Source of the DNA: Bispira polyomma
Taxonomy: Eukaryota
Reading direction: 5' to 3'
DNA: 64,000 nucleotides
NCBI GenBank assembly: GCA_965649765.1
Contig: OZ287751.1
Location: forward strand, 101,990,001-102,054,000
The position numbers and the translations under genes are program-made. The notes beneath the pieces are model-generated. The model searched no databases, was not told where the DNA came from, and saw only the letters and a program-made list of their open reading frames with translations. Shown here piece after piece: positions 3,418 to 53,947 of this stretch; within the stretch, counting starts at the first letter, position 1; each line of letters starts with the position of its first letter.

Positions 3418-3879
3418 CTATTTACAGGTATGCACTTCCACTGTTTTCTCACAAGTCCGACACTTCACATCACAGCACCACTGGAACTTGCAATGACAGC
3501 GTTCTTTCACCTTCATCTTGTAGGTGTTATGTCCGCGCCCACAACACATTAGTTCGCAGCCGTCCAGACCGGCCGAGTCTTTCGTACAGTATCTGCCCTG
3601 AGTGCCCGGTGACCCTGTCACAGGGTCGTAATTACAGTAATCGGGTGACTCGTCCAGATAGATCAAGTCCTCCCGTGTGGGTTTATTGTATCTCTTGTTT
3701 TTACGGCGTAGTCTGGTGCCGTGTTTATTGAAGGAAACCTCTGAGGCCCCATCATAACGCTCTTTCAGGTGGTTCCCCGTCTCCCGGAAACGAGGCAACT
3801 GGTTCCAACAGGTTTTTAAACTACAGGATCCAGAAACGCCGTGGCATTTACAGGCGACCTTGACGTGTTTGGAGACAGA
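3418..3879 (-). CDS. Wnt5: Wnt5 last coding exon ([14 protein letters not shown]...VHTCK*)
   Basis: Acceptor tttttgtattttcag|TCT at 3880/3879. Encodes the Cys-rich Wnt C-terminus and ends at the TAG at 3420..3418. Confidence 0.95.
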
Positions 3880-15800: not shown

Positions 15801-18800
15801 AAGTCATAAATAACTACACAAATAGTTTCTACATTGAAATAACTTTCCAATCCGATCAGTGGGTTTATTAGTGTTTAAACCCCTCAGTGTCTATAAAGAC
15901 TCTTTGATAAAATGCTACACTATAGTGAGATGGATTAATCCCCCTGGATATCTCTCTGGATCTGCTGATTGCTCTCTTTAGACATGTGATAAATACCAAG
16001 ATCTGCCAGTCATCTCAGCACCCCCCCCCCTCCCCCCATATTCCCCCTGGGAGATCTTCATGTTAAACTCACCAGGCCAACTGAGCTGCATGATGAGACC
16101 ATTACAGGTGTCTGTATAATTGTTTCTATGTCCACCTGTGTGGTTATATACATGCATCTTGTGTAGTTTCTGTGTCTGGCTTTGTATTGCTATAAATATG
16201 TCATATATATTGGTCTTAGCGTCATCTGGCCTTTTTGCAGGTAGTAGTATATAAAGGTTATAAATGTTACAAGTACTTGGAGTGTTTCCTCTGTCACTGT
16301 GGTCTAGTTGGTAACACACTCGCTTCAGAAGACCTGGGTTTGATCCCACTCTGGGACTTTTACGTACTGACTGAACCATATGTAGCTCAGATGACAATTA
16401 CCAATGACGGTCCTCTACCATAGGGTCTTATCCACAGTTGCTGGTTAAAGAGCCTTGGGAACATTAATAAATGTTTATCCCTCAAGCTTGTAGCTTTTAT
16501 TAGGATTATAAATGTTAGTTTGCTATATTTGTAAAGTCCCCTAAAGCTCTATTAGCAACTTGACTCACAGACAATCACCAGTTTCATTAAATGACTGCTT
16601 AACACAGGAAAACAGGTATTATATATACAGGTATATATATACTTCAAATAGTTTTGACATCCTACTTTATTATAGTTACTGTTTATGTGACGTATATGGC
16701 TGAATGTTAGTGTCTCACACCCACCCACCCACACATACACACATCCAATCAGACACACACACCATATATAAACCAGATATGTGTGAGTGGTTGCCATGAC
16801 CACAAACCATCCACTCCTCCCCCCCAAAAAACCCACCTTTCTTCCCGCTTCATTATTGTGTAGATTCATCAGGATCCTGGAGAGGTCTCTGGAGTACCTA
16901 GGATGGTTTCGCTCCTTCTCCCGGATATCCACAAATGCTTGGGCAAACTTATATCCGTAATCTGTGTCGTCCCCACAACCGCCCCACACCCAATCCCTGT
17001 CCAAGTTTTTGGGTCTTCTCTTCTTGCTGCACCCACAACTTGAGAGTTCCCCACTACGACAGGCTCGGGAGATCGCGTACACCACACCTGCCGCAGAGAT
17101 GGCATTCACAAAGGAAGTCTCTCTGCTTCCTAAAAAGGAAATATAGCAAATAATAAATATCACTTTTTAAACTAACGAATATAAGGGCCAAATTGATAAA
17201 GAAACATTCTCCAAAGCACTGATTTTCTAAGAAAGGTATAGTACCACAGTAGAGGGTAGGCAAGCCTTAAAAGGTAAGATTTTAATTGGTTTAAAAACAA
17301 TTCTTAAACTAGTTACATTAATTTGATTGTTATGTTCCTTAATGCCTAAATGCTCTGCGACAGCTCTTTTGAGTGCAGCAAACATCTTTATTTGGAAGCC
17401 AATTCAGGTTTTTTTCCAGGTTCAAGACAAACTGTATGAAGATACCAAATTCTCCAAAGACCACCTGAAGGCACTCATTTTGGTATGATTTTAAATGCAA
17501 TTAATGTATACATATTATTTCTTGTATTTGTTATTCATTTTCTTAAATATACATTTGATACACATGATGACATTGGTCATTTAAAATTAACGTAAAAGAA
17601 ACAGAAAATCAGTCAAATTGATTTGTAATTGGCTCTGAAATGGCCACATGTGATCTGAAAACAGCCATAGCTGTGAAATGGTTTGACCGCATGAACCGAT
17701 GAGATATCTACACACATTGTACTCTACAGACGGCTACAAGACACCATCTTGAAACAGGTAGAACTGTGAAATGGCCCCTTTAAGTCCTAAGTTCTCTATT
17801 ATAAAACAGTAGCTTTTCTACATTGTGTTAATTGTGGCAAAATCTTGTCTTCTATTTGCTCTAATTCATCAGATAGTCAATGCTGTCTAAAGCTTAAAGC
17901 CAGGATCTGCAGTCATCAAAAATATCATAAACTTATTCTCTTACTTAAACTCAAAACACTACATACAAATATTTCCTAATTACTGGGAATAACCGATACA
18001 TGTGACCATTCATTTGAATGGGAATAACCGAGACATGTAACCATTCGTTTTAATAGAGCTTTCAGTGGGGAACTCAAATATGTAATCAAATATGTAATCA
18101 GGATAAATTTTCAACTTGGTGTAAGTTTAAGTTTTACTACATTTTTGGTCAATGCAGCCCAATGTGTCAATATGTACACAAGAGAAGATCTATGAATTTT
18201 CAATTAACTCTTGTCAATAAACCATAAGAAATCAACCCTACTTCAATCTAGAGCTTCAATGGAGTTGGAATCTTTTGAACAAAGGGATTAAAGTGATCAG
18301 GTTTGGAGAGGTTTCAGAGGCCACTTCCTGTTTGGGTTTGATATGTCTACTGTTTTAATAAATGTCACAAATAATGGCCAGGTGTGAGAGCTGGTTGTCA
18401 TACCATTAACTCAAACACAATGTCCTAACCACTTGAGGACTAGTAAATGTTTGCTTTAGTTACCAGTCTGGATTAGTAGAATAGTCTAAATCAAACAATC
18501 GAGTATTCAGTGCATCAGACAGAAGTGACAGATGACTTTGTTCACATAGGTATTAACACCATCATTAGAAAGATAGATATGTTACAGTCAATCTGGGAAA
18601 TCTGTCATTAAGTGGAATGCCTACAATGTTCAGTTATTTTGTATAGAAACGTCCAATAACAATATTGTGAAGGCCTTGTGCAATAATTTTTATTTGAAAA
18701 GTGGCACAATAAGTAAATCCTGGCAAAAAGCCTTNNNNNNNNNNNNNNNNNNNNNNNNNNNNNNNNNNNNNNNNNNNNNNNNNNNNNNNNNNNNNNNNNN

Positions 18801-21800
18801 NNNNNNNNNNNNNNNNNNNNNNNNNNNNNNNNNNNNNNNNNNNNNNNNNNNNNNNNNNNNNNNNNNNNNNNNNNNNNNNNNNNNNNNNNNNNNNNNNNNN
18901 NNNNNNNNNNNNNNNNNNNNNNNNNNNNNNNNNCGACCATGGTGTTTTAAACTCCCCATCAACTCAGTCACAGAGTGATTTACCGACAATCTGCATCGCT
19001 TCAGAATTATGCTGAGATCTCAATTCGAATTGCCAAAGTGGGACTGAGGCTTTAGTAGTAATAACGGAAACACTTCCATAATCACATAATGTTGTTTGAC
19101 TCCAGGGTGGTGATTAGTTGTAAACAGATCCAGATTGTATGGAGCAGGGGACCACCTCATCCATACTGACACTATCCCTACCCCCGGGGCCCAAGGATTG
19201 GCCTCTGTGGGGGTCTAGCTTGCCTGAAACTCCCCTGGGGTAGAGTTCTAGGAGAGTTAATGAAGGGGTGGGGTTTAGTACTAGGACCTTCCTGGTACAA
19301 AGGTGGGAGGTGTCTTCTGGGTGGATTGGTTTAATCTGGGATCAGTGAATTTCTGTAGAAGTACAAATAGTTGTTTTAGCTAAATCAGCTGGCATAGTTA
19401 AAATTCATTCTTAGTAAATGTTTTATAACTTGTATTGGTATTTTGATCCAATGAACCCTCTAAAACATTTCCAATTTGGGGATGAGGGATTTGAAAGAAC
19501 AGAGAGATTAGGTGATTGACTGTGCTTGGGGGTAGGAACAAAAACTGAAATGTAAATAAAAAGCATCCGTAAGTCAGTAATAAGTATGTTTAGTATGAAT
19601 GTCATATGAAGTGTGAACTAATCACTGCAAGTGTTTTACAGTACAGTACAAAACTTCAGCTCGTTTATTTTCCAATACATGTAGTGACTGCGTGGCCCTA
19701 GCTGATAATCTGCAGTTTGTGTGTACAGCTTATTTGAATGATGAATAGGAAGCTCAAGTTTCCATAATGTATTTATACATGAGAATTAGAAATGGTCACA
19801 TACATAAACAGAAAGTATTGTTTGGTTTTTCTGCAAAAACCCACCAGAAAACTCGGTGTAACTTGTGTATAACACAGTACATGTGATTTGGTGTTGCCTT
19901 TTGAATCAGAAAATGGTGTGTGGGTGTTTAAGTAAATCTCGTTTGTTATAACACATCCTGGGAATTTCTTTTTGTCCATATTGTTGTGTATTAGAGGTGG
20001 AGCTGATAAACAGTTCAACAGTTTACAGATCAAACAATAAACCAACCCTTTATAGCTTCACTGGGGCATGGCTTAATTGTCTTATCACCTGGTTAGTGAA
20101 GTCAATTCACCAGAAAACAGCTGATTTCAATCCCTCCCCCTGGAGTTGTACACACTTATTTCTTTAGCTCCATTTCATGTCACAATAACTTAATGTTAAC
20201 ACAGATACACACCATAAAAACATCAACAACACTGTCTTACATTTATATCCTCACACCTTTCTAGCTCAACTTTAGCAGTTTTAAAATGTCCTACTGTCGA
20301 GTTAAGTTTTAGTCAGACCCCCCTAGCTCCCCCTACATCTCTAGATCCTTGTAATCCCAGCCTGTACTTGTTAGAGAACCATCAGCCACTCGAGTGGAAA
20401 ACCTGGACAGACAGGGGGAAGGGGGTTTGGGGGGAGGAGAATAGCCCGGGGGCTGGGGGGAATTATTAACACCTAAGTAAGTCCATTAGAACAAGTCAGT
20501 GCTTACCACAAACACTACAGCACATCTGGAGAGACGTCAAACTCAGCCCTGTATAGAGCTTAAATAGAATAGGTTAAACTAAAACTGGCCCTGTACATAG
20601 CATAAATACTGTATACATGTATATGTTATGTGGTGCCCTGTATACTGGATAAACCAAAGCGGGCCCTGTATGGATCTTGAATAGATCAGGGTTATCCGAA
20701 TCTAGGCCCTGTACACAGCCTAAATGGAACAGGATTGTTGAAAACTAGGCCGTGTACACAGCATTAATACTGGATATGATGTGGACATGATCAACTAAAG
20801 CTGGCCCTGTACAGAGCTTAAATAGAACAGGTTAAACTAAAACTGGCCCTGTACACAGCTTAAATAGAGCAGGTTAAAGTAAAACTGGCCCTGTACAGAG
20901 CTTAAATAGAACAGGTTAAACTAAAACTGGCCATGTAAAGAACTTAAATAGAACAGGTTAAACTAAAACTGGCCATGTAAAGAACTTAAATAGAACAGGT
21001 TAAACTAAAACTGGCCCTGTAAAGAGCATTAATACTGGATATGATGTGGACATGATCAACTAAAGCTGGCCCTGTACAGAGCTTAAATAGAACAGGGTAA
21101 ACTAAAACTGGCCCTGTAAGAGATTAAATAAAACAGGTTAAACTAAAACTGGCCCTGTAAAGAGATTAAATAAAACAGGTTAAACTAAAACTGGCCCTGT
21201 AAAGAGCTCAAATAGAATAGGTTAAACTAAAGCTGGCCCTGTTTAGAGCTTAAATAGAACAGGTTAAACTAAAACTGGCCCTGTACACAGCATAAATACT
21301 GTATGGTATGTGGAGCCCTGTACACAGGGTAAATTAGAACTGGTCCTGTACAGAGCTTAAATATAACAGGACTATTCAAATTTGGCTCTCTACACAGCTT
21401 AAACTAAACCTCAACCCTGTACAGAGCAAACAGAGCCCTGTAAATAGCTTAAACTAAAACTAGGCCTTGTAAATAGCTTAAACTAAAACCAGGCCTTGTA
21501 CACAGTTTAAACTAACACTGGTCCCTGTAAACGGCTTAAACTAACACTGGTCCCTGTACACGGCTCAGATTAACACTGGTCCCTGTACACAGCTTACACT
21601 AACACTGGTCCCTGTACATGGCTTAAACTAACACTGGTCCCTGTACACGGCTTAAACTAACACTGGTCCCTGTACATGGCTTAAACTAACACTGGTCCCT
21701 GTACATGGCTTAAACTAACATGGGTCCCTGTACACGGCTTAAACTAACACTGATCCCTGTACACGGCTTAAACTAATACTGGTCCCTGTACACGGCTTAC

Positions 21801-24800
21801 ACTAATACTGGTCCCTGTACCCGGCTTACACTAACACCGGTCCCTGTACATGGCTTAAACTAACACTGGTCCCTGTACACAGACTACCCTAACACTGGTC
21901 CCTGTACACAGCTTACCCTAACACTGGTCCCTGTACACGGCTTACACTAACACCGGTCCCTGTACACAGTTTAAATTAAGACTGGGCCATGTAAACACGG
22001 CTTAAACTAAAACTATGCCCTGCAAATAGCTTAAATTAAGACTGGGCCATGTAAACACAGCTTTAAATTAGGACTGGGCCATGTAAACATAGCTTTAACT
22101 AAAACTATGTCATGTACAAAGCTTCAACTAAAATAGATTAATGTCAAAAGATTGTAAAACAGACAGGCACTCAGTATAGTGCATACCTCCACTAGATGTC
22201 AATACTCTTCAGTAAAAGCAATTCTTGGATCTGCCCTTCTACTTATATCTGCTCCTAAAGTTAAGGAATTATCCGTGTATTGATACCCTTGTCATTCCAA
22301 CCAGTTTGTGTCAATCAGTTCAGTAGTGTTTTGTACAATTCTGGTGAGAAGCAGACATCGGGGTAACTATGTATGTAACTGAGGGCGGTGTACATTTCAG
22401 AACAGAAGTCATTTCGTGCACTAACATAACTAACTTCAATAGGAATGTTAGTGGCTCGCATTGTTTCTTTAATGTTTAACAGTTCTCGTGTTTACACAAC
22501 AATTGTCACCATTCCTTGTAAACATACCTACCACCCCACACCACCCACACCACCCACAGCCTGACTTCCCACGAAGGTATATTTAGGACAAACACACAAG
22601 GAAATATGACAATATGTAATTATGTTTAGATAATTTAATAAGTACAAAAACCTCCATTCATATATTAACTGTAAAAAGTCGTCTGCTGAGAGTTAATCTT
22701 CTGGATCTAATCCCTTGTTTTCCCTCGCTCTCTCTTTTCGCTCCTGGAGAGAAATTCCTTCGTTTTTTATTCCCGCATGGTGTCTATTTTTTCCCCTATT
22801 CCATGGATCCACTTTTATTATATAGCATTGATCCCCCTACTCCAGATTTCCGCTGTCCTGAACGGTCAAGTAGTGCCTCTCACTGCGATGGGATCAGTCC
22901 ATGTATCATTACACACACGGTTGGACTGTATTGACAGAGGAGACTTGTAACACATGGACAGAGTTTGCTTGCATTGAAGTCCCCACTTAGGATTTCCACC
23001 AGGAAGACTTTAAGTGAGCATTTGACACTGTTTACTCCACATGTTTAAAGATCTAGGCAGGCAAGATTGAGAAAATGTTGTGTCCATGTAAATTCTAAGC
23101 GATAAAACCGTTTTTTACTGCACAAATTGTATTTTCGAATAAAAGTTTTTTTTGATTATACACCGTACGTTGACTATATGTTGACCAAATAATCAAAATA
23201 GGAAATAGTCAATTAATTTATTCATCTACGACTGTCTTCAGTTGGGTATTAAAGTTCATAGGTATTACAATTGATGTCGTAAACTTTACTTAAAGAAATA
23301 CCAGCAATTATATGTCCATTGCTGACACAATTCACTCCCTTAAGACTACCTTAGTGTAATTATATATGTCCATTACTAACATATGATTCATTGTCGTCAG
23401 ACTACATTAATATATTAAGTATTCAAGATTGTCACCATACAATTGTCTATTCTTTTGATGTTTACTTTTAAAAACAACTTGATGCTAGTCTCCATCCTTA
23501 CTAATTGTCCTTAATCCTAACCTTAAGACTACAACACCATATACTCCCCTTAATCCCCTTATCGCCCCCATACAACTGGCACTGTATACAGTCCCTTTAT
23601 GGTTTTTGTCCTCTCTACCTGTAAAACCAGGCAAACATATATCTGGATCTGTTAATAACACACACCCAGACTTCGGTCAGCACTCTCTCTGGATTTATGT
23701 CCTACAATGCATTGTGTCTCTCCGGCATGGGGTCCTCCCAGCAAGCCACAGATCCCTATCCGGGAGAGCTCCCTCACTGAGACACACCAACCACTGGATC
23801 CAGGATTAAAGCCCGGATTAAAGCTCTCACACACATTTGGTTGGGCGTTTCTGGATATCTCTGGATTGTACCAAATATCTGCTCCCCCCCCCCCACTCTC
23901 CCCCCACCCCACTTTGTTTTTGTGATTTTTCAATCTGGATCTAAAAATGTGAAGTATGTCAGTAGATCCACCCCACTTACAGAAACATGTTGTATCTAGA
24001 CCTTATTTCAGCTTGAAAGATATTTTGGTCACCAAATTTAACAAGATTTTTTGATCAAAGAAATCAAGCTTTGGTGGAATTAATTTTTGGTAATTGCATA
24101 AGTTGTTTACCTGGGAGATGAAATACAAAATTTAAAACTGGAAATAGCAGGTTCCGAAATTAATTTTTACTGACCAAGCTCCTTACCTAGAATATATTAA
24201 AGCTTTTATTTCTTAATAAAATTTTCACCAATACAGTATTTAGGGCACCTTCCTTCACGTGGTCTAGTAGATAGATAAATAGATTCGTATTATACTCTAG
24301 CCTGGCAAAATATCAACACATAATTCTATTATTCTTTCATAATTTTAGTTCCCTCCTCATACACCCCAACATTCTTCCTTACGACCTTGCCATATTTTTG
24401 GACTTCACCGTTAGTTAAACGATTCTGTTGTTGCACTTTAGAAGATGCCTCGCATCAAAAATATGCGTTAAAATTTGAGAATACAATACAATTAATAAAA
24501 TGCTAGACCCAGCCAGCCACTTGTGGCTATAAGAGAGTTTACATGTACAAATAATGAACTTACAATATACTGGATCAGACTTCGGAGCATCTTTAGTCCT
24601 TTAGGCCTTTGCCTTAATATAATAGACATTCTCCCTGTATTATTACTATTACTATAGGAGAGTAAAGTGAATTTGACTTTAACAATCAATTTACCGGAAG
24701 ATACTTTTCACTTTAGAAATAAATAGTATTTGCTAGTTGACAATGTGTTGGTCATTTAGTTTGATGTCGTTATTATTGACTCTTTTTCTAAAACCAAAAA

Positions 24801-27800: not shown

Positions 27801-30800
27801 TAATTACTGGAACACGCCATTGGGAAATAAAAAAAAAGACTATTTTTATGATCCATAAATCACTGGCCTAATCACACGGCTGATATCATTACGACACCCA
27901 AGCCTGGGTTTTTCCGTCCAGTTGGATGTTAAATAGGTCCTGTCATGGTTTAAATACTTTGTTGTTAAGACACTCAGTATAGATTTCTCTATATAAAAAG
28001 GGGTGACACATAAGTCCATGCCTTAATGTCTTGTCCTAATGCCCATTACTGACACATGTGTGTGTGATGTGTGTACATACCGTGGTACATGGTAGTTCAG
28101 TGAATTCTTTACAAGGTAGGTTTTTATCAGTCTGTTATTGTTTTCACTCTAAAAAGGGCTTGGCCATGTTAGAAAGCACTGCCATGCTGGAAATAATATG
28201 TAAGGCCTTAATGGATTGGTTGAATGCAATCTTTTTTTAAGAGCTAACTCTTGTTTTTCAATTTGGCACTTTATGTTCAAGGTTGATGTATATTCTGCAG
28301 TGACTATAGTCCTGGCGTAGTGATATGATGGGGGGGAGTGTTTATGCTCTGTTAAATGAAGGGGCTTCCTATCCTCCCCCCTCAGCCTCTAAAAATCTAC
28401 ACCAACCATTGCCAGCCATATGTGGGTTCTGATCACATAATGATATATAATTTAGCTGTGGGGTGGAATTATCTGGGTAAAAGCATTTAATTACTGAGAA
28501 ATCTATACCCCCTGCTATAAAAGGGCCCTTTCTGTGTGTAGTGAAAATAACTTTCCCCTTTTCAAATGTGATCTTTTTATGTGTAAAACCCATTTTGTAT
28601 ATGAACAGTCATACAGCTAGCTACACATCTTGTGTATGTTACTGTATTAGTTGACATTTTAGATGAAAATTTAATTTGACTATTTTTTTTTTTTAATTTT
28701 CAAAACTGGCCAATTTTTGCAGGTAAAAGAGAAATATAAATTTTTACTGGGGATTTAAGTTTCAATATCAATATTTATTAACTAAAATAGCTTCTAAGAC
28801 TTCTAGCTTGGAGAGTATATGATCTATCTGTATGTGNNNNNNNNNNNNNNNNNNNNNNNNNNNNNNNNNNNNNNNNNNNNNNNNNNNNNNNNNNNNNNNN
28901 NNNNNNNNNNNNNNNNNNNNNNNNNNNNNNNNNNNNNNNNNNNNNNNNNNNNNNNNNNNNNNNNNNNNNNNNNNNNNNNNNNNNNNNNNNNNATGACGTC
29001 ACAAGGTGGTAAGTAACAAAGTAAAAAGACATTGATACCTATAAAGTAAACAAATACATATTTTTTCTTGTTAAAGCTACTGTTTATTTGAAAGTGTCTG
29101 AATATTTTCTAAACCTGGTCACTNNNNNNNNNNNNNNNNNNNNNNNNNNNNNNNNNNNNNNNNNNNNNNNNNNNNNNNNNNNNNNNNNNNNNNNNNNNNN
29201 NNNNNNNNNNNNNNNNNNNNNNNNNNNNNNNNNNNNNNNNNNNNNNNNNNNNNNNNNNNNNNNNNAGTTAGGTTGGTCACCAAATGTTTTTTTTTGGGGG
29301 GGCGTCAATGGGGGGACAAAGTTTTCACCACTTAGTAGCCTCAGGTGGTCCTTTAAAACACAAGAACTATTTTACAAATGTTGGCAGATGACATGGGTAG
29401 TTAACATAGAAAAGATGTACACAGTTCTGATGTGGCTCACTCACTGAGGTCTACGATCATTGACTTTTTTAGATTCACTAAAAAGGTGGACATTTTAGCC
29501 AAGTATAAAATGTCCCTGTTTTGTTATTCGTTCATTCGTTTAGTTTTCTGGAATCCATTTCACTATTGCCTAATTTTTTATTTTAAATATCAAGTACAGG
29601 TTTAAATTGTGACTGAGAATTCATTTGATTATCCAGAACCATTAGCTAAAAAAGGTAGAATTCATTTCTAGTGGAAAGTTCCAGTTCTACAGTGCAATAC
29701 ACAAAACAAATTCCCACGTCATCTCAAGACCACATAGTGTGAGTGTGGTGTGGATTCTGACACATTATCGTCTTACTGTGAAGTGGCTTTGTGTACGTCA
29801 GGCTAAATACACGTTAACTTTGCTTGACCAGTCACATTATTACACAACAGACATATCAAGTAGTACTGCTTTTTAACATGCAAAGTGTATGCTGTCAAAA
29901 GCCCCATTGACATATCACAACTATTCTATTTAGGGTAATCTCGTCAGCTTTGTGTCAACTTTAATATGTGTCACTGTTGAACATTCTCAATAATCATTGC
30001 AGTGCTTTTTTTTACACTTTCAAGCTACTATTTGTGTACTCAGTAAAATAATGAAAACAGCTTAAATGACCAGTGCACTTTTTTTTACACAAACAGAGAT
30101 GAAGTAATGCAAACTAGGGTTAAGATATCTGAGTTTTGGACATTTAGACAGTTTTCTCTTAACATTGACTTTACAATACCCTGTAACATTAAGTAAACGC
30201 TCCACTTGACATTGACTTTACAATACCCTGTAACATTAAATAAACCCTCCACTTGACATTGACTTTACTATGCCCTGTTACATTAAGTAAACCCTCCACT
30301 TGACATTGACTTTACAATACCCTGTAACCTCAAATAAACCCTCCACTTGACATTGACTTTACAATACCCTGTAACATTAAGTAAACCCTCCACTTGACAT
30401 TGACTTTACTATACCCTGTAACCTTAAATAAACCCTCCACTTGACATTGACTTTACTATGCCCTGTTACATTAAGTAAACCCTCCACTTGACATTCACAA
30501 CCCACGTCATAAATCCTCTAAACTCTTCCAACCCAGATCTCAACTAAAAGTCCCGACATTTTTTGTGTCTACAATATCCTCCCTTTACTCCAGTTCTGAT
30601 TTGGTAAGTAATATTCATATAGAATATTATTCATTGATATTAGTCAATGTTTCACTTTTGTTTATTTGGCATCCCACACATACATTTTAAAGTACGGCAT
30701 TTTTAATCTAAAATCTATGCTGTCAAAAGCCTATTTGACACATCACAAAACTGTTGTTTCATTGTAACATCTCAACATATTATTCATTTAGGGTATTTTG

Positions 30801-33800
30801 TTTGCAGCCCAAGTAACCAGTAATAAGTAAGCCAGTACTCCATAATCCTACCCCTTAAAAAACATTAAAGACATAGCTTTACTCCTAACCTTGGCCTCAT
30901 TAGTCCTCAATAACCTAGCTCAGTTCTAGTCCTATTTTAGCCCTAACCTTCACTAGCCCTAACATTGCAATAGCTATAACTCTTTCTAAATCTTAACACC
31001 TCATAAGACCTTCAAAAAAATGGAATGATCTAAGAGATGTTTATACTACAGAGCATTGAAGTCACATCGTTGGGTTTACACCTCAGAAAACATTCTTAGG
31101 TATAAAAACCCTGGTAATATAGTAAGAAATCTGTGTGAATTCTCTGTTTTAGGTAGAAATATATGTATATATCTGGGTTAAAACACCATTTCATTGTTAT
31201 AAGACCAGACATTTAGCCATTTATCATCAGCTGTCCCCTAAAGACAGTAAATCACTCTTTACAAATATTGGCAAGGCCGTGCATTTCACTGAAAGACAAA
31301 AGCGGGTAAAACATTTAGATAATCACAAGGCTTCGTTCTGTTAATTGACTGCGTAGAAAACAAATGGATATTACAGGGGTGATTATATTAATATTATGTA
31401 TTTTAAACGTACTATATTGATGGGCAACAACAAAACCAGGTAACCAATCGAGTAGACTATAAACAAATAGCCAGATCATAAGTAAGGATGTGAAGTTTAT
31501 TTCGCAAATACCAGCTCAGGTATCGTACAAGCCATAGATTTAATATAAGGTTACAATACCTGGATACCAGTTTAACTAAGTTTAACTAACAGTTATTTGT
31601 TGTGAATATGTTCACAGCAGACATGATTTTTGCTTTACATCAAGTCTCTCTGACATAACTAGACAAGTAGCCAAAATAGACCAGTATTGCGTGTTGTAGA
31701 CCAATTCTCTGTTTGGCAAGTTCTTTAACAAGTGTGGTCAAAATCTGACCAGGTCATTACCTATCAATTTGTCCAACACATTTGGTCACTTACTGTTGTA
31801 TATACATATATACACATGTTAGAGGACAGCAGTCAGATGTGTGACGTAAACAGTAACCCCTTGTAGTCTGTGTTAACCTCGAGTTGGTAGTTCTACTAAG
31901 GTTCTGTGATAGTGAGGTAGAGTTGATTACTTTTATGTGACTCACAACACTAGTGATCTTTGGCTTTTAGAACAGCCTTCCAAAACCAATCCTCCATTCA
32001 CCTGTATCAACAATTGGCCCAATTCCCCTACCTCACCCATATCTACGATTGTTCCTGACAATCACACATACGTACCTATATCTACAATTGGTCCAAATAC
32101 AGAATCGTCGTCCACCGTCGTACAGTTCCATCTCCGGTTCCTAAACTGCCACTGACACTCACGGATGCCGAGCTGTGCCCCGCGACTTACTGCCGTCATG
32201 TGGTCTTGGTACATGGTACAGAACTTCATCTGTCCCGGGGAGAGTCCGTGGAGGCGAGTACAGACGGGCTGAGCTCCCACCATGTAGATCTGAGGGTTCT
32301 TAATGACGTCAACACCCTGCACTCCCAGGCTCCTGGAAAGAGAGGTCAGTGGATACAGATATATTATCAGAAAAATTCAAGTGTGGATAATAGAGGTTCT
32401 TGATGACGTCAATACCCTGCACTCCCCGGCTCCTGCAAAGAGAGGTCACTGAGTACAGAATATATAGTCAAGAAAATAGACCTCCAGTAATACAGGTTGC
32501 TGTAGGTTCTACTATTGGTTTAAAACATCCACCGATATCTGTGTACAAACCTTCACATATGAGGTAAAGCTTGGCACTCAATGTAAACAATATTATTTGA
32601 TTAACATTATTAGTTAAACCAGTAGTGTCAATGTAAAGTTAACACAAGCAATGCTTATTAAAATAAACCCCAAAGACTGTTATACTTCTGGTGTTCTTGT
32701 GTTGCTAGGTTATACTATGTATAAACTTTACGTTTAGGGTTTTGGTTCACACCTAAGTTGGATTTTAGTAATTGCTTTTGGGACAACCTGCTCGTGCATT
32801 TCTATAATTTAAAATATCGCTTTGGCATAGGTACTTCACTCACACAACTTATATTTTATACTATTAAGAGTTTTATTTCTACTTTAAAAAAGACATAGGC
32901 GCAGAGTGTGAAATACACTAACGTTGTTGTGGCCACTTTATACTCAGGCCCCAGACCGCGCCTCATAAAAATAAATCTGACACCCCTCAATTTGGCATAG
33001 TCGTTCCTACCAACCAATCCATGAAGGCCTTACACATTTTTGTAAGATGACGCACCCTTTCAGAATGAAAACAATATTAGACTTTGCCTGATAAAAAGCA
33101 AGGGGAGTTCAAAATTAAGAGGTCTTTCTGTTTTCACTCGCCTAGTGTATGGGTTACACAAAATATATAGTAACCAGAAATAATAGAAATAAAGCCCATG
33201 TATATTCATATATTTAGTGTAATGCCACTCTGCTTTCTTGTTGTATGTAAAAATGTATGCATTCAAAACTACTTGCCTAACTGGTACATCACTTACTAGT
33301 TCTCGCTTGTGTTAATCTTGCAGATGACTTAAGAGGGTAAAACGTGGATATGATATTGTAATGGCCAGTTTATGGGTAGACTTTGTCTTTATGTGGCAGG
33401 TTCGTAGGAAGTTCTAAATTGTCTGATTCTCTTGGTCTAATACCAAAGAAATACAAAATAACCTCTGAACAAAAGAGAAAAGAACTCATCAAGACGAATC
33501 AGCTATATAACGTTTAACAATTAAGTAATATAAATGTGGAATATGTTTCATGTGGTATATATTAACAGTGTGGTGTTATTTTTCTGTTATAACACTTGTT
33601 TTGTGTCACGTTGTTTACTTATGTTTGTCCAGACTTGTCATAGTACATGTCGATATGGCTGTTGTTGACAATCGTATACGAGCAGTTGTACTGTATGAGT
33701 ATTATGATAACTGGAGATTTCAACTCCCTTCTCCAAGGGACCCTACCCTTATTGTTAGGCACACATAAACATACAGTCCTTCTTCCTCTTTTGTCACTGA

Positions 33801-36800
33801 ATTCTCCTGTCTGATCAAGATAGCTTGTTGGTGACATTTTTGTGACACATTCCAGCCAGTTCAAGTGTGGCTGTGGTTACTTTGATCCCACTTAATCCAC
33901 GTATCCACAAAGACATTCCCCCAAGGATTAAAACATGACTTGCTCATCCAGACATGTACTTATATTTATTAATAAACTCATAGAAAGGTTAGAATTTTTC
34001 CTGACTTGTTCCAGTAAATAAGTCATTAATAGAAGATTGTTGACTTTAACAAAGCGTATGAAGCTCATTACACTCACACAAACACAACTGCACACCTTTT
34101 GCCTTTAGCAATTATTTCCCTTTCATATTCACCACTGTGTCTTTCTAAATATCTACAAAATTCCTTGAAGATTATTTAAGAGCATTTGACACTATGGGTT
34201 TGAACTAGAGCAATCGTCCAAGAGACATGAGGGGTCTTTGAAGTATCTTCTGAGGCCTTGCTAAAGTCAATAAAACTCGGGAATCTATTGCCTACTGTAG
34301 CATTTTTTTTTAGATTTTTTTTTTTTGAACTGGTAATGTTTCTAATTCTAAGTACATTTTCTAGGTGTATTTTCTGCCATAAAATAATATTATTCTTCAT
34401 TTTAGTGATAAATGATACATTTAGCGTTAGTTATTTTATCTTTCATGATAATTATGTTCATATATTTATTGATGTACTTAGATCTTATTTTATACAAAGA
34501 AAGGTTTGATATAAATCTGTTAGTATTAGCAGTTCTTTTTTAAATGTTTCAACCACTTTTATAATGTGCCTAACTCTGCAGTGAGATCAAATTGGAAGTG
34601 TTGCAATTATTTTATATTTTAATGTACTCTGTGTCTTCCTGAAACATTGATGCGTATTCAAATTTAGAATGTATTTTGGTAAAATAACAAGGGTTGTCCT
34701 GAAGGATACCCCCCCCCCCCCTCTCTAGAGCATAATCAAAGATAGTACACCCCAGCAGAACCAGGGCAATCCGTCCCCAGCCCAATCTCAGTGCTTGCAC
34801 CCACACAAAGCCACTTTCAACTCACCGTGTTTTAATCGAGTTTTGTGCTCCTTTAAACATCAAACGACTTAAAGGCACAAGGTAGTATAACTTAAGCCTG
34901 GATTATTCTGATGGTGTTGTTTTTTTTTTTCTGTTTTTTTTTTTTTTTTGTATTTAATATTTCTGCGATCATTTAATGTAACTTTAATAAGTAGAGATGC
35001 ATGCTTCTCTAATTGTGAGGAAAGAATTGGCTGAGATTTATATCTTGCTTTGTGCCAATATAAATGAGAATTTTATTACTAAGTTAAATTTAAGCTGTTT
35101 ACGGTAATAGGATAAGTATGGTTGTTTTGAAGACCATTTTGTAACCAGATACTTCCCTTAAAACAGAGCCCCCATCTATTTCTGGAGCTAGCGGGGAGGC
35201 ATCATACGGAAGGGGAAATCTCCGTCCATTTTCCAACTGACTACACCGCACTGATTAAGGTCCACAGCTAACTTTGAAGTGTTAAGCCCCCTGCCTGTAT
35301 TCTCCGCCACTTTGTGGTTACATTAAACAGAGAAATAGAAATTCTCAAATATTTGACACCTGCCCTTCACCCACTTTATCCCCCCCCCCTCCTCAGGCAA
35401 ACACAGACAATCTATGTGGGATGTTGAACTAGAACGGGGAATTTTAGCTTGAGCAGACGACAATTATCATAACAGTAGCATTTACTTTGGTTTTGTAGTT
35501 TAATTGATTTCTCTATTTATATCTTGTTAAATATGAATTGAGCCACTAGATACAGGGTCAGTATTGGTATTCTTATACAGATTTTGGCCATACTCACTGA
35601 ACTGTATGGGACTATTTGAAAATGCAGACCCCCCCCCTTATTATTACCCCCCCCCCCCACCTGCCTCCTCAGAATTACTTGAGTTCATTAGTTTCTCAGT
35701 GTCAAGCCCCCCCCCCCCCCCCCCCATGTCAACTCACTCAAGTAGCAGGTTATTAGAAGCACATCTGGGGCTATATACACGTTGTTAATTACTACAAGGG
35801 CTATACACACGCTGGGGGTAGTTATGGAATGTTGACTCAGTGAATAACCCACTTGTACTTAATAAAACCTGTTCCTACCAACCACCACCTCCCAAACCAT
35901 AATTTCCTTGTCTATGACAAGTATTTGGTACAAGCTGATAAAATATATTTGATGTAAATTAAATCTCCTGCTGAAGACAGAGGTTTGAGGATGACACCAT
36001 TTATGAAGGTCCCAAGGTTATTTAGCCTGTCGTATATGAGCCACTGACAGAGGACACAAGCATTTCATTTGAAGTGGTCATCTGAGCACCTGTGTATTTA
36101 CATTGACCTGTACCTATTTACAGAGGCAGGAATTGAGGCCAGGTCCCGTACATTGCTAACCAAGTATGTATTACCTACAGAGTGTGGGATTGAGGTCAGG
36201 TCCCCTACTAACAGAGTGTGTATTATCTACAGAGGGTGGGATTGAGGTCAGGTCTCCTACTAACTAAGAGTGTATTACCTACAGAGGGTGGGATTGAGGC
36301 CAGGTCCTCTACTAACAGAGAGTGTATTACCTACAGAGGGTGGGATTGAGACCAGCACCTCTACTAACAGAGTATTACCTATTGACTATAAATATGTGTA
36401 CTACTTCCCCCAGTTGTGTGAACCAATTGGGATTCGAATCCTTGTCCTAAGAGGTGAGAAGCTAGCCATTGTGAAGAACTTGTGGGTGTGGGTTATTAGT
36501 CTTGTAAATCCTAATAATATTAAAAATACTAACATATACATGTGTATACATAAATGCCCAAACTTAGAAGCTATATCATTTAATTCATTGGTTCCAATTA
36601 ATCTATTAGTTTCATTCCCCTTTCTCGGCTGATCTTGGACTGTACTGTATGTGTGCAGTTGTGAAGGGTTTGAATACTGATCCTCCCAGACCATTTTTAA
36701 CAGCCATATGAAGTCACATGACGTCCCAGACGCAAAAAGTAGGCTAGTAGGTCATATTTATGTGGTAATTACTAATACTCTGTTTATGATTTTTGTTTGT

Positions 36801-39660
36801 ATGCATATAAATACTTAAGCCATTTGCTTAAAAATCTACCAAAGGAAATATTTGCCCATTGAACCAGAATACTACATAAAAATTCTGTACACAGTATAAA
36901 CAAACTCTCCTTACAAGTTACTTGTGACTTTTAAATCTCTCATTGGCGGGCAGACGACATTTGCAATGGTGTGATTCACATCCACTTCCTGCCCCCCCCC
37001 CCCCCCACTGACCACGTGTCCCCTCCCCTCCCCCACCACGAATTACAAATAAAACCCGCCCACACACAAAAAAAAAAAAATAACTAAATAAACTTCACAC
37101 ACAGTTGTAAACTTTTTGTCAGAGTTCATCTTCACAGAAGTAAACTTCCAATAAGCTTAAAGAATAGGGAGTATTGTACAAGTTGTAACTGACTCCTCAA
37201 CAGTAAATAAATCAAAGACTAATACCCACCTACACACACCAGTATAGTGAATTACAGACTGACTTACTAGTGGAATAGTTTGTTAACTCTAGTGTAAGCT
37301 AAATGAGTATATTAACGGCCAGTTAGAACCTAGGGTTCTCTATCTAATGTTTGTTTTCTGCTTTTTAAAAATGGTTAAATCATTTTTTGTCTATTGAATA
37401 ATATTTTTTACATTTACATTGAAATTTTTGTGTATTATTTATTTATTTATTTAATATTTTTTTGTTTGGGTGTGGGGGAAGGGCTTTGTAAAAATGAGGA
37501 AGCACATTTTTGGTATTTGGTAAGATCAGTGATTTTGTACCTTTCGGTTTGAGGTAAGACAGTGTACCAATATACACATTATGAGTGGTGTGTGTCTAAA
37601 GTTTATAGTGAAAGGTCTTAATAATCACAGTCAATCATCTGCTGCCTCCTACATTAACTCTTACACCCCCTCCCCAGTAACCCCCCCCCCCCTTACTACA
37701 TAGAATCAGCTCAGTGTTATTGTTGTAAACACTAACATTGGTACTTCTTTTCCCAGTAGGTTGAAATCACTGTAGACTGATAGGGTTAGAACTACTAATA
37801 AGTCTTATATAAACACCCAGATATTAGAACTCTTCGGGTGGGAGAAACTGCCATATCAAACATGATCTAATGACTCTCCCCTCCTACAAGTCTCCACGCC
37901 TAAGACTATTACATGTTACATGTATACACACGTGGCGTGGAAGGTTTTTGCTGGTCTTGTTGGTAATATCTGTTATCAGTGATGAAAAGTAATAATTTGT
38001 TTTGATAACCCCAAGTAAGAAATAGTTCTGCACTTTAGGAAAGGTACTTTGATAGCCGGCCAGGGGTCGTTGTTTTGGTACAGCTACCCCCCCCCCCTCC
38101 CCCCTCTAGGGGTGATTGGAAATATGCCTTCAATGCATAAACCTGTTTTTTTCTTCTAAAAAAGTCTTAATCACCAAAATAATATCCCTGATTAACTGTA
38201 GCACCCAGTCCATTTGATGGGTTTAATATTTGTGTATTATGCTACAGGTAATCCCATAATTTCAGAGAACACTTTAGAAGGCACCTATTAAACCAGTTTG
38301 GTACAGAACTAAAAGGAACATTTGATGTAAACTGATTCTGAAACAAATTACTCTGCCATGTTATGATTGCATTTTGTCGGTATATAAGTTTCTATAGTTA
38401 CAAAAGGTTCTTTCAGAACAGTTTCGTAAAAAGTCATTTAGTTTAAATAATCACACGGCTTTTTGACTGTTATTCGGTGATTTTTCGGTGATAGATTGGG
38501 CCTGATGTGGATTGGGTGACTGCTTAGGGAAGATAATAAAACCTACTCCCTCCTAAGAGAGACCCCCTCCATTCCTTGGAGTGAGGTGATTTGTATTCCC
38601 AGGTAGGGGGTAAGTTATGGGGCTGATAGGTTGGGATTGGAATACATATCTATAACAAGTAGAAACAGGGTCAGGTGACTGGTAATAAAACTGTCTTATA
38701 AGCTAGTGTGTATGGGTCCTAATTGTGTTCTACTCAATGTGTAGTTCCTTACAGTTATTTAAAGTGTGCTTAATGTTAATATTATAACAGAACTAATACA
38801 TTGTGATATTGTCATAGATACATTTGACAACTAGATCAATTGGTAAATCAGTTCCCAACTAGACACTCACGCAATAGAGTGCATACATCTGCAAAGATGT
38901 TACAGTATCTAAAAGTTTAAAAGTAACCAACAATCTCTGCCCTTCTATACCCAGATCTGCTCCATAATTTACTGGACTCCTTCTTGGTCTATGAACCATA
39001 TACCTTTACTAAGTTTCAAGTCAATCTCTTTACAATATATTTTTAAAAACTAACAGACTTTGGGTGAAAGCATCAACTCCTTCTTGCTGGAGTCAATATA
39101 TAATAGATCTTCACTAATTATTATTACAACTAAACTATAATGCATTGGGGTCCATAGTAACACCATTCAAGTACTGATAACAAGCTGAACCAATGGACAC
39201 CAGCAAAAAACATAACCTTCCTAACAAATTGAATTAATAGAACACATATTTTGTGTGAACAACTTTGACCATGTTTCCATGTCGGCAATGGACGACTTGA
39301 ATCAGCCAACAGCAATTGACAATTATTATGTTTTTGGTACCAAGAGCGAAAAAAATTACCTACCATTGCCTGCCACATCTCGGTATTGCTCAAATGGAAA
39401 CAAATACTTATAAATTAATGAAACTGATAAAAAAAACTGGTGTTGGCCGATCGCGTCAGAAAATTCCCTGCATGGAAACATCATAACCAACAAAGAGAAT
39501 GTATATCTTTCTGAGAATTGCATCTCTTGCTGACCATATCAAACAAACAACCCACTCACCACCACATGTCGACACCGGTAGCAAAGTCAACCACCAGACA
39601 CAGGATCAGTACAAAGATCGGGATCCCTCCCGCCGGAGTCCCACACTCGGATCTAGCCAT
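3418..39660 (-). CDS. Wnt5: Wnt5 secreted signalling protein, spliced CDS: join(39560..39660, 32076..32332, 16837..17129, 3418..3879), 370 aa
   Basis: Four exons (101+257+293+462=1113 nt) join in frame with GT-AG introns of phases 2, 1, 0. The protein has an N-terminal hydrophobic signal peptide and Wnt motifs: [53 protein letters not shown] (contains the lipidated Ser), [39 protein letters not shown] and [18 protein letters not shown] match the Wnt5 subfamily as I recall it. Confidence 0.93.
9640..9930 (+). mobile_element. L2/CR1-type LINE 3' end fragment
   Basis: Translates as [10 protein letters not shown]...FRKNLLTYL, a typical ORF2 C-terminus. The tail ttagaagatgcatcacatcaataagg..aatacaatac matches the tail at 50.86-50.9 kb. 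Confidence 0.75.
12868..12943 (+). mobile_element. tRNA-like SINE head interrupted by a MITE
   Basis: A-box TGGCCGAGTGG and B-box GTTCGATCC, with no full cloverleaf. Confidence 0.55.
12944..13086. mobile_element. MITE-like non-autonomous DNA element
   Basis: Perfect 18-bp inverted repeats TATTCACAAAGATTCTTA (12950-12967) and TAAGAATCTTTGTGAATA (13064-13081), with CTG on both sides. The same terminus recurs at about 57988-58014. Confidence 0.75.
13208..13476 (+). repeat. Dispersed repeat, copy A (inverted partner at 27963-28229)
   Basis: About 270 bp that aligns by eye with the reverse complement of 27963-28229. A short piece also occurs near 32975-33035. Confidence 0.9.
14812..14948. repeat. 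14-bp minisatellite (TATGAAYCTGTYMC), about 9 copies
   Basis: Directly visible tandem units. Confidence 0.85.
16837..17129 (-). CDS. Wnt5: Wnt5 coding exon 3 (GSRETSF...NNEAGRK)
   Basis: Acceptor tttcctttttag|GA at 17130/17129 and donor AAG|GTGGGT at 16837/16836. 293 nt, inside ORF 16552..17163. Confidence 0.94.
18735..18933. other. N-run (assembly gap or masked sequence)
   Basis: Run of n characters. Confidence 0.99.
20545..22132. repeat. Compound minisatellite: 42-bp units followed by 28/29-bp derivative units
   Basis: CTGGCCCTGTACAGAGCTTAAATAGAACAGGTTAAACTAAAA (period 42, about 20.55-21.4 kb), then CTGGTCCCTGTACACGGCTTAAACTAACA (period 29, about 21.5-21.97 kb). Confidence 0.95.
24345..24492 (+). 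mobile_element. LINE 3' UTR fragment, same family as 9640-9930
   Basis: Aligns by eye to 9780-9925 (ttagttccc..cttccttacgacc..ctttagaagatgc..aatacaatac). Confidence 0.7.
27963..28229 (-). repeat. Dispersed repeat, copy B (inverted)
   Basis: Reverse complement of 13208-13476. The ORF track shows the same peptide [14 protein letters not shown] on opposite strands. Confidence 0.9.
28837..29265. other. Two N-runs (28837-28992 and 29124-29265)
   Basis: Runs of n characters. Confidence 0.99.
30162..30495. repeat. 47-bp minisatellite, about 7 copies
   Basis: ACATTGACTTTACAATACCCTGTAACATTAAGTAAACCCTCCACTTG in tandem. Confidence 0.95.
32076..32332 (-). CDS. Wnt5: Wnt5 coding exon 2 ([24 protein letters not shown]...FGPIVDIG)
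   Basis: Acceptor ctctctttccag|G at 32333/32332 and donor ATA G|GTACGT at 32076/32075. Overlaps ORF 32062..32322. Confidence 0.93.
36105..36382. repeat. ~51-54-bp degenerate minisatellite, about 5 copies
   Basis: GTATTACCTACAGAGGGTGGGATTGAGG(T/C)CAGGTC..CTACTAACAGAG units. Confidence 0.85.
39560..39660 (-). CDS. Wnt5: Wnt5 coding exon 1 (start codon and signal peptide [34 protein letters not shown])
   Basis: ATG in good context (aggATGG). Hydrophobic stretch [12 protein letters not shown]. Ends TGG TG|GTGAGT, a consensus donor, and the split TG|G Trp codon fits the phase of the next exon to give WWSLG. Not listed in the ORF track because it is short. Confidence 0.85.
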
Positions 39661-48244: not shown

Positions 48245-48700
48245 GATTTGGGGGTTTGTGTTCTTTTCAACATCTTACCGTTACATGGTTATATAATGAT
48301 GACCAGATTTATTTGTGGAGGAAAACCAATGCTATTTGTACAAGAACCTACTGACCTAAGGTAAGTACCTGGCAAACCTATACTACATGAAAGAAGTGCT
48401 GGGATTTAATCCCACTGTCCTCAGAGGTGAGTGGTTGGTAATATTAAAAGTAACACTTATGTAATGACTAGGCAACCGTATATAATTCTACAAAGTTTTG
48501 AACTTTCAGATAGAATTTTGAATTTAGTGTGGTTTTACACCACTTTTTAATAGCTTAGCTTATATCCCGACCGTCAGGTTTAGTGGTAGTTAAAAAAGCG
48601 GACCTACGGTAAGTACCTGTCAAACTTACCCACATGAAGGAACTAACAGGATCCAAACCCACCTTGGTGAAAGGTCAGGGATTATTAACTCCACTTTGAG
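48245..48700 (-). mobile_element. Two adjacent degenerate copies of the same SINE family in reverse orientation
   Basis: The segments near 48245-48480 and 48520-48700 are reverse-complement similar to the 57121 SINE (gacct..ggtaagtacctg.caaac..acatgaa..ggatt..aaccc..ggtga). Confidence 0.65.
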
Positions 48701-49092
48701 ATAGAACTGACGAGATTCAAACCCACCTTGGTGAAAGGCCAGGAATTATTAGCTCCACTTTCAGATAGAACTGACGAGATTCAAACCCACCTTGGTGAAA
48801 TGCCAGGGATTATTAGCTCCACTTTCAGATAGAACTGATGGTATTCAAACCCATCTTGGTGAAAGGTCAGGGATTATTAGCTCCACTTTCAGATAGAACT
48901 AATTGGATTCAAACCCACTTTGGTAAAAGGCCAGGGATTATTAGCTCCACTTTCAGATAGAACTAACAGGATTCAAACCCACCTTGGCGAAAGACCAGGG
49001 ATTATTAGCTCCACTTTAAGATATAACCAACGGGATTCAAACCCACCTTGGTGAAAGGCCAGGTATTATTTACTCCACCTTAAGATAGAACT
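48640..49092. repeat. 64-bp tandem array, about 7 copies, derived from a SINE head
   Basis: GGATTCAAACCCACCTTGGTGAAAGGCCAGGGATTATTAGCTCCACTTTCAGATAGAACT.. repeated. Confidence 0.92.
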
Positions 49093-52670: not shown

Positions 52671-52856
52671 GGGGGCTGTGGTGGCCTAGTGGTTAAAACA
52701 AGCTTTACAATCACTGGCCTCTCACCAATTTGGGTTCGAATCCTGTTCTTTCCTTCATGTAACTTGCGATAGGTCGGTGGTTCAATTCTGTCGGTGGTTC
52801 AAATCTGGCCGTCGTGATATAAGCAGTGTAAAACCCAACTAAATTCAAGTTCAACA
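52671..52856 (+). mobile_element. tRNA-derived SINE, same family, internally shortened
   Basis: GTGGCCTAGTGG, tcactggcctctcacca, GGTTCGAATCCTG, aggtcggtgg, tctggccgtcgtgatataa. Confidence 0.8.
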
Positions 52857-53947
52857 AAAATGGTCACATAATAGACGTCTAAACACAAAATGGTCACATA
52901 ATAGACGTCTAAACACAAAATGGTCACATAATAGACGTCTAAACACAAAATGGTCACATAATAGACGTCTAAACACAAAATGGTCACATAATAGACGTCT
53001 AAACACAAAATGGTCACATAATAGACGTCTAAACACAAAATGGTCACATAATAGACGTCTAAACACAAAATGGTCACATAATAGACGTCTAAACACAAAA
53101 TGGTCACATAATAGACGTCTAAACACAAAATGGTCACATAATAGACGTCTAAACACAAAATGGTCACATAATAGACGTCTAAACACAAAATGGTCACATA
53201 ATAGACGTCTAAACACAAAATGGTCACATAATAGACGTCTAAACACAAAATGGTCACATAATAGACGTCTAAACACAAAATGGTCACATAATAGACGTCT
53301 AAACACAAAATGGTCACATAATAGACGTCTAAACACAAAATGGTCACATAATAGACGTCTAAACACAAAATGGTCACATAATAGACGTCTAAACACAAAA
53401 TGGTAACATAATAGACGTCTAAACACAAAATGGTAACATAATAGACGTCTAAACACAAAATGGTCACATAATAGACGTCTAAACACAAAATGGTCACATA
53501 ATAGACGTCTAAACACAAAATGGTAACATAATAGACGTCTAAACACAAAATGGTCACATAATAGACGTCTAAACACAAAATGGTCACATAATAGACGTCT
53601 AAACACAAAATGGTCACATAATAGACGTCTAAACACAAAATGGTCACATAATAGACGTCTAAACACAAAATGGTCACATAATAGACGTCTAAACACAAAA
53701 TGGTCACATAATAGACGTCTAAACACAAAATGGTCACATAATAGACGTCTAAACACAAAATGGTCACATAATAGACGTCTAAACACAAAATGGTCACATA
53801 ATAGACGTCTAAACACAAAATGGTCACATAATAGACGTCTAAACACAAAATGGTCACATAATAGACGTCTAAACACAAAATGGTCACATAATAGACGTCT
53901 AAACACAAAATGGTCACATAATAGACGTCTAAACACAAAATGGTCAC
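52857..53947. repeat. Near-perfect 30-bp tandem satellite, about 36 copies
   Basis: TGGTCACATAATAGACGTCTAAACACAAAA repeated. The only variants seen are C>A at 53405, 53435 and 53525. Confidence 0.98.

Follow-up and report, generated by a model that had tools for sequence, protein, structure and literature searches.

The border between intron 1 and coding exon 2 of a predicted Wnt gene carries a two-copy tandem duplication of the kind known as a mirage, which probably arose through microhomology between the end of a MITE and the exon, and whose spare upstream acceptor is likely to be skipped in most transcripts. The head-to-tail units span the border, and the extra copy is intronic and contains splice-like signals, as in other mirages. 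The repeat goes beyond chance sequence matching, but duplications of this type are frequent in this genome. Because similar copies stand at about one in ten of the exon starts checked, the most likely reading is an ordinary duplication that is skipped for the most part, not a control switch.

The duplicated border of Wnt exon 2

The window (the whole 64-kb stretch of DNA that was analyzed) contains a Wnt gene on the minus strand, on which all parts of the gene and of its duplicated border described below lie, and the examined stretch has a single match in the genome (1.035 Gb, 75 contigs). The predicted gene consists of coding exon 1 (39560..39660), with a hydrophobic signal-like stretch and a phase-2 donor, coding exon 2 of 257 nt (32076..32332), coding exon 3 (16837..17129) and coding exon 4 including the stop (3418..3879), the last three placed by reading frame and a Pfam wnt profile scan. 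The four joined exons encode 370 aa with zero internal stops, and Pfam wnt (PF00110) was matched by all three exons scanned. This analysis itself gives Pfam wnt membership; the subfamily is presumably Wnt5, a putative label that was also used in the preliminary description of this DNA. Exon 2 is flanked by introns of 7.2 kb and 14.9 kb. Intron 1 also holds a separate very high-copy repeat (32883-33097), matched by thousands of contig pieces, and minisatellite arrays occur in the window at 52853-53947, 20741-22131, 30158-30495, 36119-36373, and 48640-49092, one of them comprising 36.5 almost perfect copies of a 30-nt unit.

At the start of exon 2, a direct repeat of 65 nt (32295-32359 and 32395-32459) has an identity of 89% and a spacing of 100 nt, and Tandem Repeats Finder reports a complete 100-nt unit in 2.0 copies with 80% matches (32295-32498). 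Repeat search and alignment place the downstream unit, which includes the working acceptor plus 38 nt from the start of exon 2, at 32295..32394, and the upstream unit, composed of 62 nt of intron end and 38 nt of copied exon start, within intron 1 at 32395..32494. The alignment shows differences between the copies at 3 of 38 sites in the exon-derived part, at 4 of 27 in the part adjoining the AG and at 12 of 34 in the far intron part, with two one-base gaps; the exon part is preserved at 35 of 38 sites vs 22 of 34 in the far part. The core of acceptor plus exon, with 7 differences in 65 sites, is better preserved than the far part (p 0.006; p 0.013-0.072 in model tests). Two of the three changes in the exon part are replacements and one is silent.

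The working acceptor AG (32333..32334) is in frame with exon 1 and lies 66 nt from the preceding AG. Splicing to the spare acceptor AG (32433..32434) would start the exon at 32432, adding 100 nt and shifting the frame, and translation of this alternative exon meets a premature TGA (32309..32311), which leaves 233 nt to the exon 2/3 junction. Whichever of the three frames is read through the 100-nt insert, a stop is reached. A weight matrix, partly circular since the picking of acceptors favors pyrimidines, was trained on 48 acceptors of the same genome (46 rule-picked myosin sites and the other two Wnt sites) and gave the spare acceptor 10.9 bits vs 9.6 for the working one, making the former the best among the 452 AGs of intron 1; a second training set gave 9.8 vs 9.2 bits. 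Decay of the upstream acceptor at the consensus level is not borne out by these scores. Only the upstream copy has an extra AG (32449..32450), which lies 16 nt before the spare acceptor, is weak (4.7 bits), and if used would add 116 nt and shift the frame; an AG within 16 nt upstream was seen at only 3 of 48 control acceptors. The exon beginning at the spare acceptor would measure 357 nt, a length reached by none of 49 control exons with approximate borders, three of which reach 257 nt.

The frame is not rescued by moving the donor of exon 1 (-6, -3, 0, and +4 all fail), nor by the weak exon 1 GTs at +8 and +11, from which a stop at 32379 is reached. Behind the copied piece, the GT donors at +10, +17, +25, and +76 are all frameshifting, and the sole candidate at a multiple of three is a weak GC at +12. 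Without a frame-keeping donor after the 38-nt copied piece, neither a new intron nor an in-frame microexon arises, and a search for a microexon or a recursive AG/GT site found none that preserves the frame. The preliminary description had claimed a duplicate of acceptor and exon start 100 nt apart, an upstream acceptor that is intact and first in the transcript, and a frameshift of 100 nt leading to an early TGA; all of this was recovered here, with the ends of the duplicate moved by one base.

Border copies elsewhere in the genome

A rule applied to profile matches, rather than RNA evidence, set the control borders. They comprised 50 of 73 myosin-head matches, from which long open frames and near-identical paralogues had been excluded (one acceptor was shifted 14 nt by hand and one exon was without an acceptor), plus 35 of 127 kinesin matches, namely those inside retrieved loci. 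Protein-kinase controls were dropped because the 30 loci obtained all proved to be long open frames. Many kinase frames of ~411-418 aa, intronless and nearly equal, are dispersed on many contigs and may be carried by a mobile element. Other kinase frames, of ~356 aa, form a tandem cluster at 97.6-99.1 Mb of contig C4. A border was scored as copied when a 26-nt probe across it had a match with at most five mismatches, no more than 400 nt away on the intron side.

Acceptor copies were present at 4 of 48 myosin and 4 of 32 kinesin borders, 8 of 80 in total (4-19%). Donor copies were more frequent (p 0.034), with 14 of 49 in myosin and 5 of 33 in kinesin, 19 of 82 in total (15-34%). In the literature covered, mirages are described only from a few amphioxus genes (PMC3087553, PMC3902484), and here mirage-like copies were carried by 27 of 162 sampled control borders. 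The control acceptors yielded 27 individual copies, those inside one array not being independent of each other: the AG was kept in 27/27, 18 were frameshifting and 24/27 scored at least as high as the real site or within 1 bit below it. As in the Wnt gene, the exon part was better preserved than the far part in most control cases. Some arrays reach ten equally strong copies within 400 nt ahead of myosin and kinesin exons. Individual myosin loci include acceptor minisatellites with the AG kept in all copies within 400 nt, six copies of a 58-nt period at L091 (C13, near 16217323) and ten copies of a ~27-nt period at L110 (C10, near 19425320), and also lone, frameshifting upstream acceptor copies with a geometry near that of the Wnt case, at -98 nt in L111 (C3, near 96591592) and at -173 nt in L074 (C8, near 40116240).

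Tandem duplication is also found away from these borders. Fifty-nine evenly spaced 10-kb stretches contained 31 two-copy tandem duplications with a period of 50-300, 22 of which had no match to other sampled loci. Among splice-like sites taken genome-wide, 53/1500 acceptor-like and 45/1500 donor-like sites had a copy, and 25/1500 and 24/1500, respectively, formed the end unit of an array. Splice-like sites in the control loci but off the matched exons had any copy in 49/359 (acceptor) and 106/557 (donor) cases, not below the real borders (p 0.46 and 0.37), whereas array end units at the same off-exon sites were below the real borders both for acceptors (15/359, p 0.049) and for donors (22/557, p 4e-8). 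At the real borders, intact copies accompany roughly one acceptor in ten and one donor in four, which is 2 to 6 times the local array-end rate.

The plain cause of this excess of end units would be pinning: a unit anchored in an exon could neither be lost nor drift, so that arrays at borders would persist longer than others. A mutation process seeded by the borders may be an alternative to pinning. A wider proposal is that exon borders actively seed or pin tandem repeats, that the spliceosome routinely bypasses equal upstream acceptors and that a few copies, such as that in the Wnt gene, have been co-opted as poison acceptors that set dose; this is speculative, and we give it limited credence. 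As a single locus the Wnt border has little weight, being one among many border duplications in the genome, and the more striking lead is that border copies are in excess across the genome. If border seeding or pinning is true, this genome would put exon definition to a natural test thousands of times over, and with RNA data it would allow a direct test of how the spliceosome selects the last acceptor where several are equal.

Probable skipping of the spare acceptor

Since 8 of 80 control acceptors are preceded by intact, frame-shifting copies, no Wnt-specific purpose is needed, and the features of the Wnt copy do not exceed the norm in this genome, because the control copies share its intact AG, its score and its frameshift. 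The preliminary description had left the choice between a regulated switch on Wnt dose through nonsense-mediated decay (NMD) and a silenced decoy. The second of these fits better, and the first loses ground since the same copies precede myosin and kinesin acceptors.

Skipping of the spare acceptor probably results from exon definition. Lying between long introns, exon 2 would be defined across its body, which would favor the acceptor nearest to its donor and with it the exon of 257 nt over that of 357 nt. Exons beside long introns lose much of the preference for an upstream acceptor, although this preference is reported as reduced and not reversed under exon definition (PMC9225289). The extra AG 16 nt ahead of the spare acceptor, together with a surrounding RNA stem, may help skipping; in human genes a new AG between branch point and acceptor can silence the acceptor (PMC9284458). 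Rare use of the spare site would yield RNA with a premature stop, which would probably be degraded and would amount to splicing noise rather than a tuned switch. Against skipping stand the spare site itself, which is undecayed at the consensus level, outscores the working acceptor and comes first in the transcript, and the better-kept core of acceptor plus exon, which could reflect constraint on the copy.

The stem mentioned above is predicted by folding to have 13 bp (32463-32451 pairing with 32424-32412) and to enclose the spare acceptor (32412..32463), at -21.5 vs -12.8 kcal/mol. It is a weak hint, since it does not reach significance (z -1.69; 15/200 shuffles and 708/4000 drift simulations equally stable), and masking of the spare site by RNA structure was set aside as an explanation. 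The predicted accessibility of the pyrimidine tract is equal for both acceptors (0.50 vs 0.47). The upstream region folds at -18.7 kcal/mol, and the most stable of 46 control acceptors at -18.6.

A rather unlikely alternative to skipping is that the spare acceptor is often used without regulation, with a constant and tolerated lowering of Wnt output and degradation of the stop-bearing RNA. Such a leak would agree with the equal or higher score of the spare site, its top rank in the intron and the similar accessibility of both tracts; a border duplication in human USH2A disturbs splicing (PMC11311777), and splicing into unproductive forms occurs widely in human genes (PMC11387194). However, equally strong copies precede myosin and kinesin exons, where common use would be costly, and normal splicing was found by RT-PCR in amphioxus (PMC3087553).

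Improbable is a regulated poison acceptor, in which the choice of acceptor would set the dose of Wnt via NMD, perhaps by opening of the stem. The stops in all three frames of the insert, the position of the TGA well ahead of the next junction, the better preservation of the core than of the far part and an upstream fold more stable than that of 46/46 control acceptors are consistent with it. Several observations speak against it: a frameshift is expected at two thirds of offsets and was seen in the same fraction of control copies, a better-kept core is also the rule among the controls, and the stem lies within the drift simulations. Moreover, the two copies are ~20% diverged, whereas high conservation is frequent among known poison exons (PMC11357089), and no Wnt5 acceptor case was among the matches listed in the literature search. 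If regulation were nevertheless true, the Wnt border would present an NMD switch of recent origin that acts on a developmental morphogen, made from a repeat accident. Mostly skipped and ordinary for this genome remains the likely reading of the spare acceptor.

Origin of the duplication and known systems

Extra read depth at 32341-32454 pointed to a repeat. A 15-mer at the joint of the two copies has 42 occurrences (at most one mismatch) in 654 kb, the one in the window included, and corresponds to the terminal inverted repeat of a ~190-bp MITE-like family. Ten full copies of this family were aligned, and its profile has 105 matches at E<1e-3 in 590 kb; terminal inverted repeats of ~24 bp, a TA target duplication, high copy number and no coding frame characterize it as a MITE. 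The window contains the family only as a relic of its left end. The left end, a match to the terminal inverted repeat, lies across the joint of the two copies (32363..32400), and a profile match at the start of the upstream copy (32463..32515) is a more decayed relic of the same end. A MITE end is present no more than 100 nt from 2 of 49 control acceptors. As the family search was seeded with the window's own word, chance was assessed separately: the chance of meeting such an abundant 15-mer is ~6e-5, the downstream piece stripped of its exon-derived bases was equaled in 0/2000 shuffles, and the upstream relic in 0/78 intron windows. For the pyrimidine tract itself, a MITE origin did not reach significance (114 and 939 of 2000 shuffles). 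A DNA search with the 68-nt piece between the acceptors, with common words skipped, returned only the piece itself, and a script search recovered the MITE core. Small palindromes lie in the upstream far part (32470-32515), with a 5-bp hairpin that resembles both MITE ends back to back; they may be a transposon scar or the product of template switching, and a possible cause of the clustered differences.

On these observations, an old MITE end ~60 nt ahead of the acceptor would have offered a microhomology with exon 2 that fixed the end of the duplication. The six exon bases AGAACC (32295..32300) are common to the MITE end and are the likely microhomology. Slippage or repair at the short match between the old MITE end and the exon codons is the likely source of the 100-nt tandem copy. 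A whole-word literature search gave no report joining MITE, microhomology, tandem duplication and splice acceptor. Very improbable is a different origin with equal outcome, in which a 65-nt duplication and a separately inserted MITE-derived spacer take the place of one 100-nt event. The stronger divergence of the far parts (12/34 vs 7/65 in the core) and their unequal MITE profile scores (48 downstream, 32 upstream) would suit it, but the far parts are still alike (only 19/5000 shuffles as good), both match the same MITE end, and AACC is present at all three unit borders.

The preliminary description had named an assembly artefact as the finding that would overturn the duplicate. That two alleles or misread sequence were fused in tandem is barely credible: the period is a round 100 nt, and the three DNA runs that contain all sampled words belong to one study with at most two samples, possibly including the assembled one, but the copies are ~20% diverged, and in 3/3 runs a single contig over 31600-32912, from which variants are dropped so that a second allele or homozygosity cannot show, reproduces both copies with 0 differing letters, 0 gaps, and ordinary depth. 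Since one contig per run spans both copies, the joint exists in read-derived sequence.

Several known systems resemble the Wnt border in part. In the Rogers model of intron gain, tandem duplication copies splice signals as it does here (PMC2891723, PMC4974935, PMC3265369); it differs in that the 38-nt copied piece in the Wnt gene has no frame-keeping donor, and no new intron results. Poison exons and other cases of alternative splicing coupled to NMD, such as Smndc1, share the placement of a stop well ahead of the last junction that the splice choice would give, but the Wnt copy belongs to a repeat type common at the borders of this genome, and its acceptor is a putative one, predicted from DNA (PMC11357089).

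Closer in structure is the human USH2A duplication c.3812-3_3837dup, which spans an acceptor and whose first copy leads to a stop, as in the Wnt gene; it disturbs splicing, with 60.9% exon skipping. In contrast to the Wnt copy, which has the full pyrimidine tract and is ~20% diverged, it is recent, only 29 nt long and without a copied tract (PMC11311777). In the 37-bp VNTR of intron 7 of human F7, the end unit spans the exon-intron border and functional-looking copies are silent, a likeness to the reading favored here; this VNTR is found at a donor, so that the real site leads, whereas in the Wnt gene the spare acceptor precedes the real one (PMC1557585).

Nearest of all are the amphioxus mirages, tandem copies of the 3′ end of an intron and the start of the next exon in BflGb6, BflGb9, Adh3, troponin C, and PGBD5, for which RT-PCR suggested no interference with splicing (PMC3087553, PMC3902484). 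The Wnt case differs from them in having two copies only, a 100-nt unit and a MITE end at the start of the unit, in another animal and gene, and it is known from DNA sequence, whereas normal splicing there was seen by RT-PCR. There is also a likeness: BflGb6 has the same geometry, with units of 150-160 bp that are 81-100% identical, and many of the amphioxus copies retain their splice signals, as does the copy in the Wnt gene.
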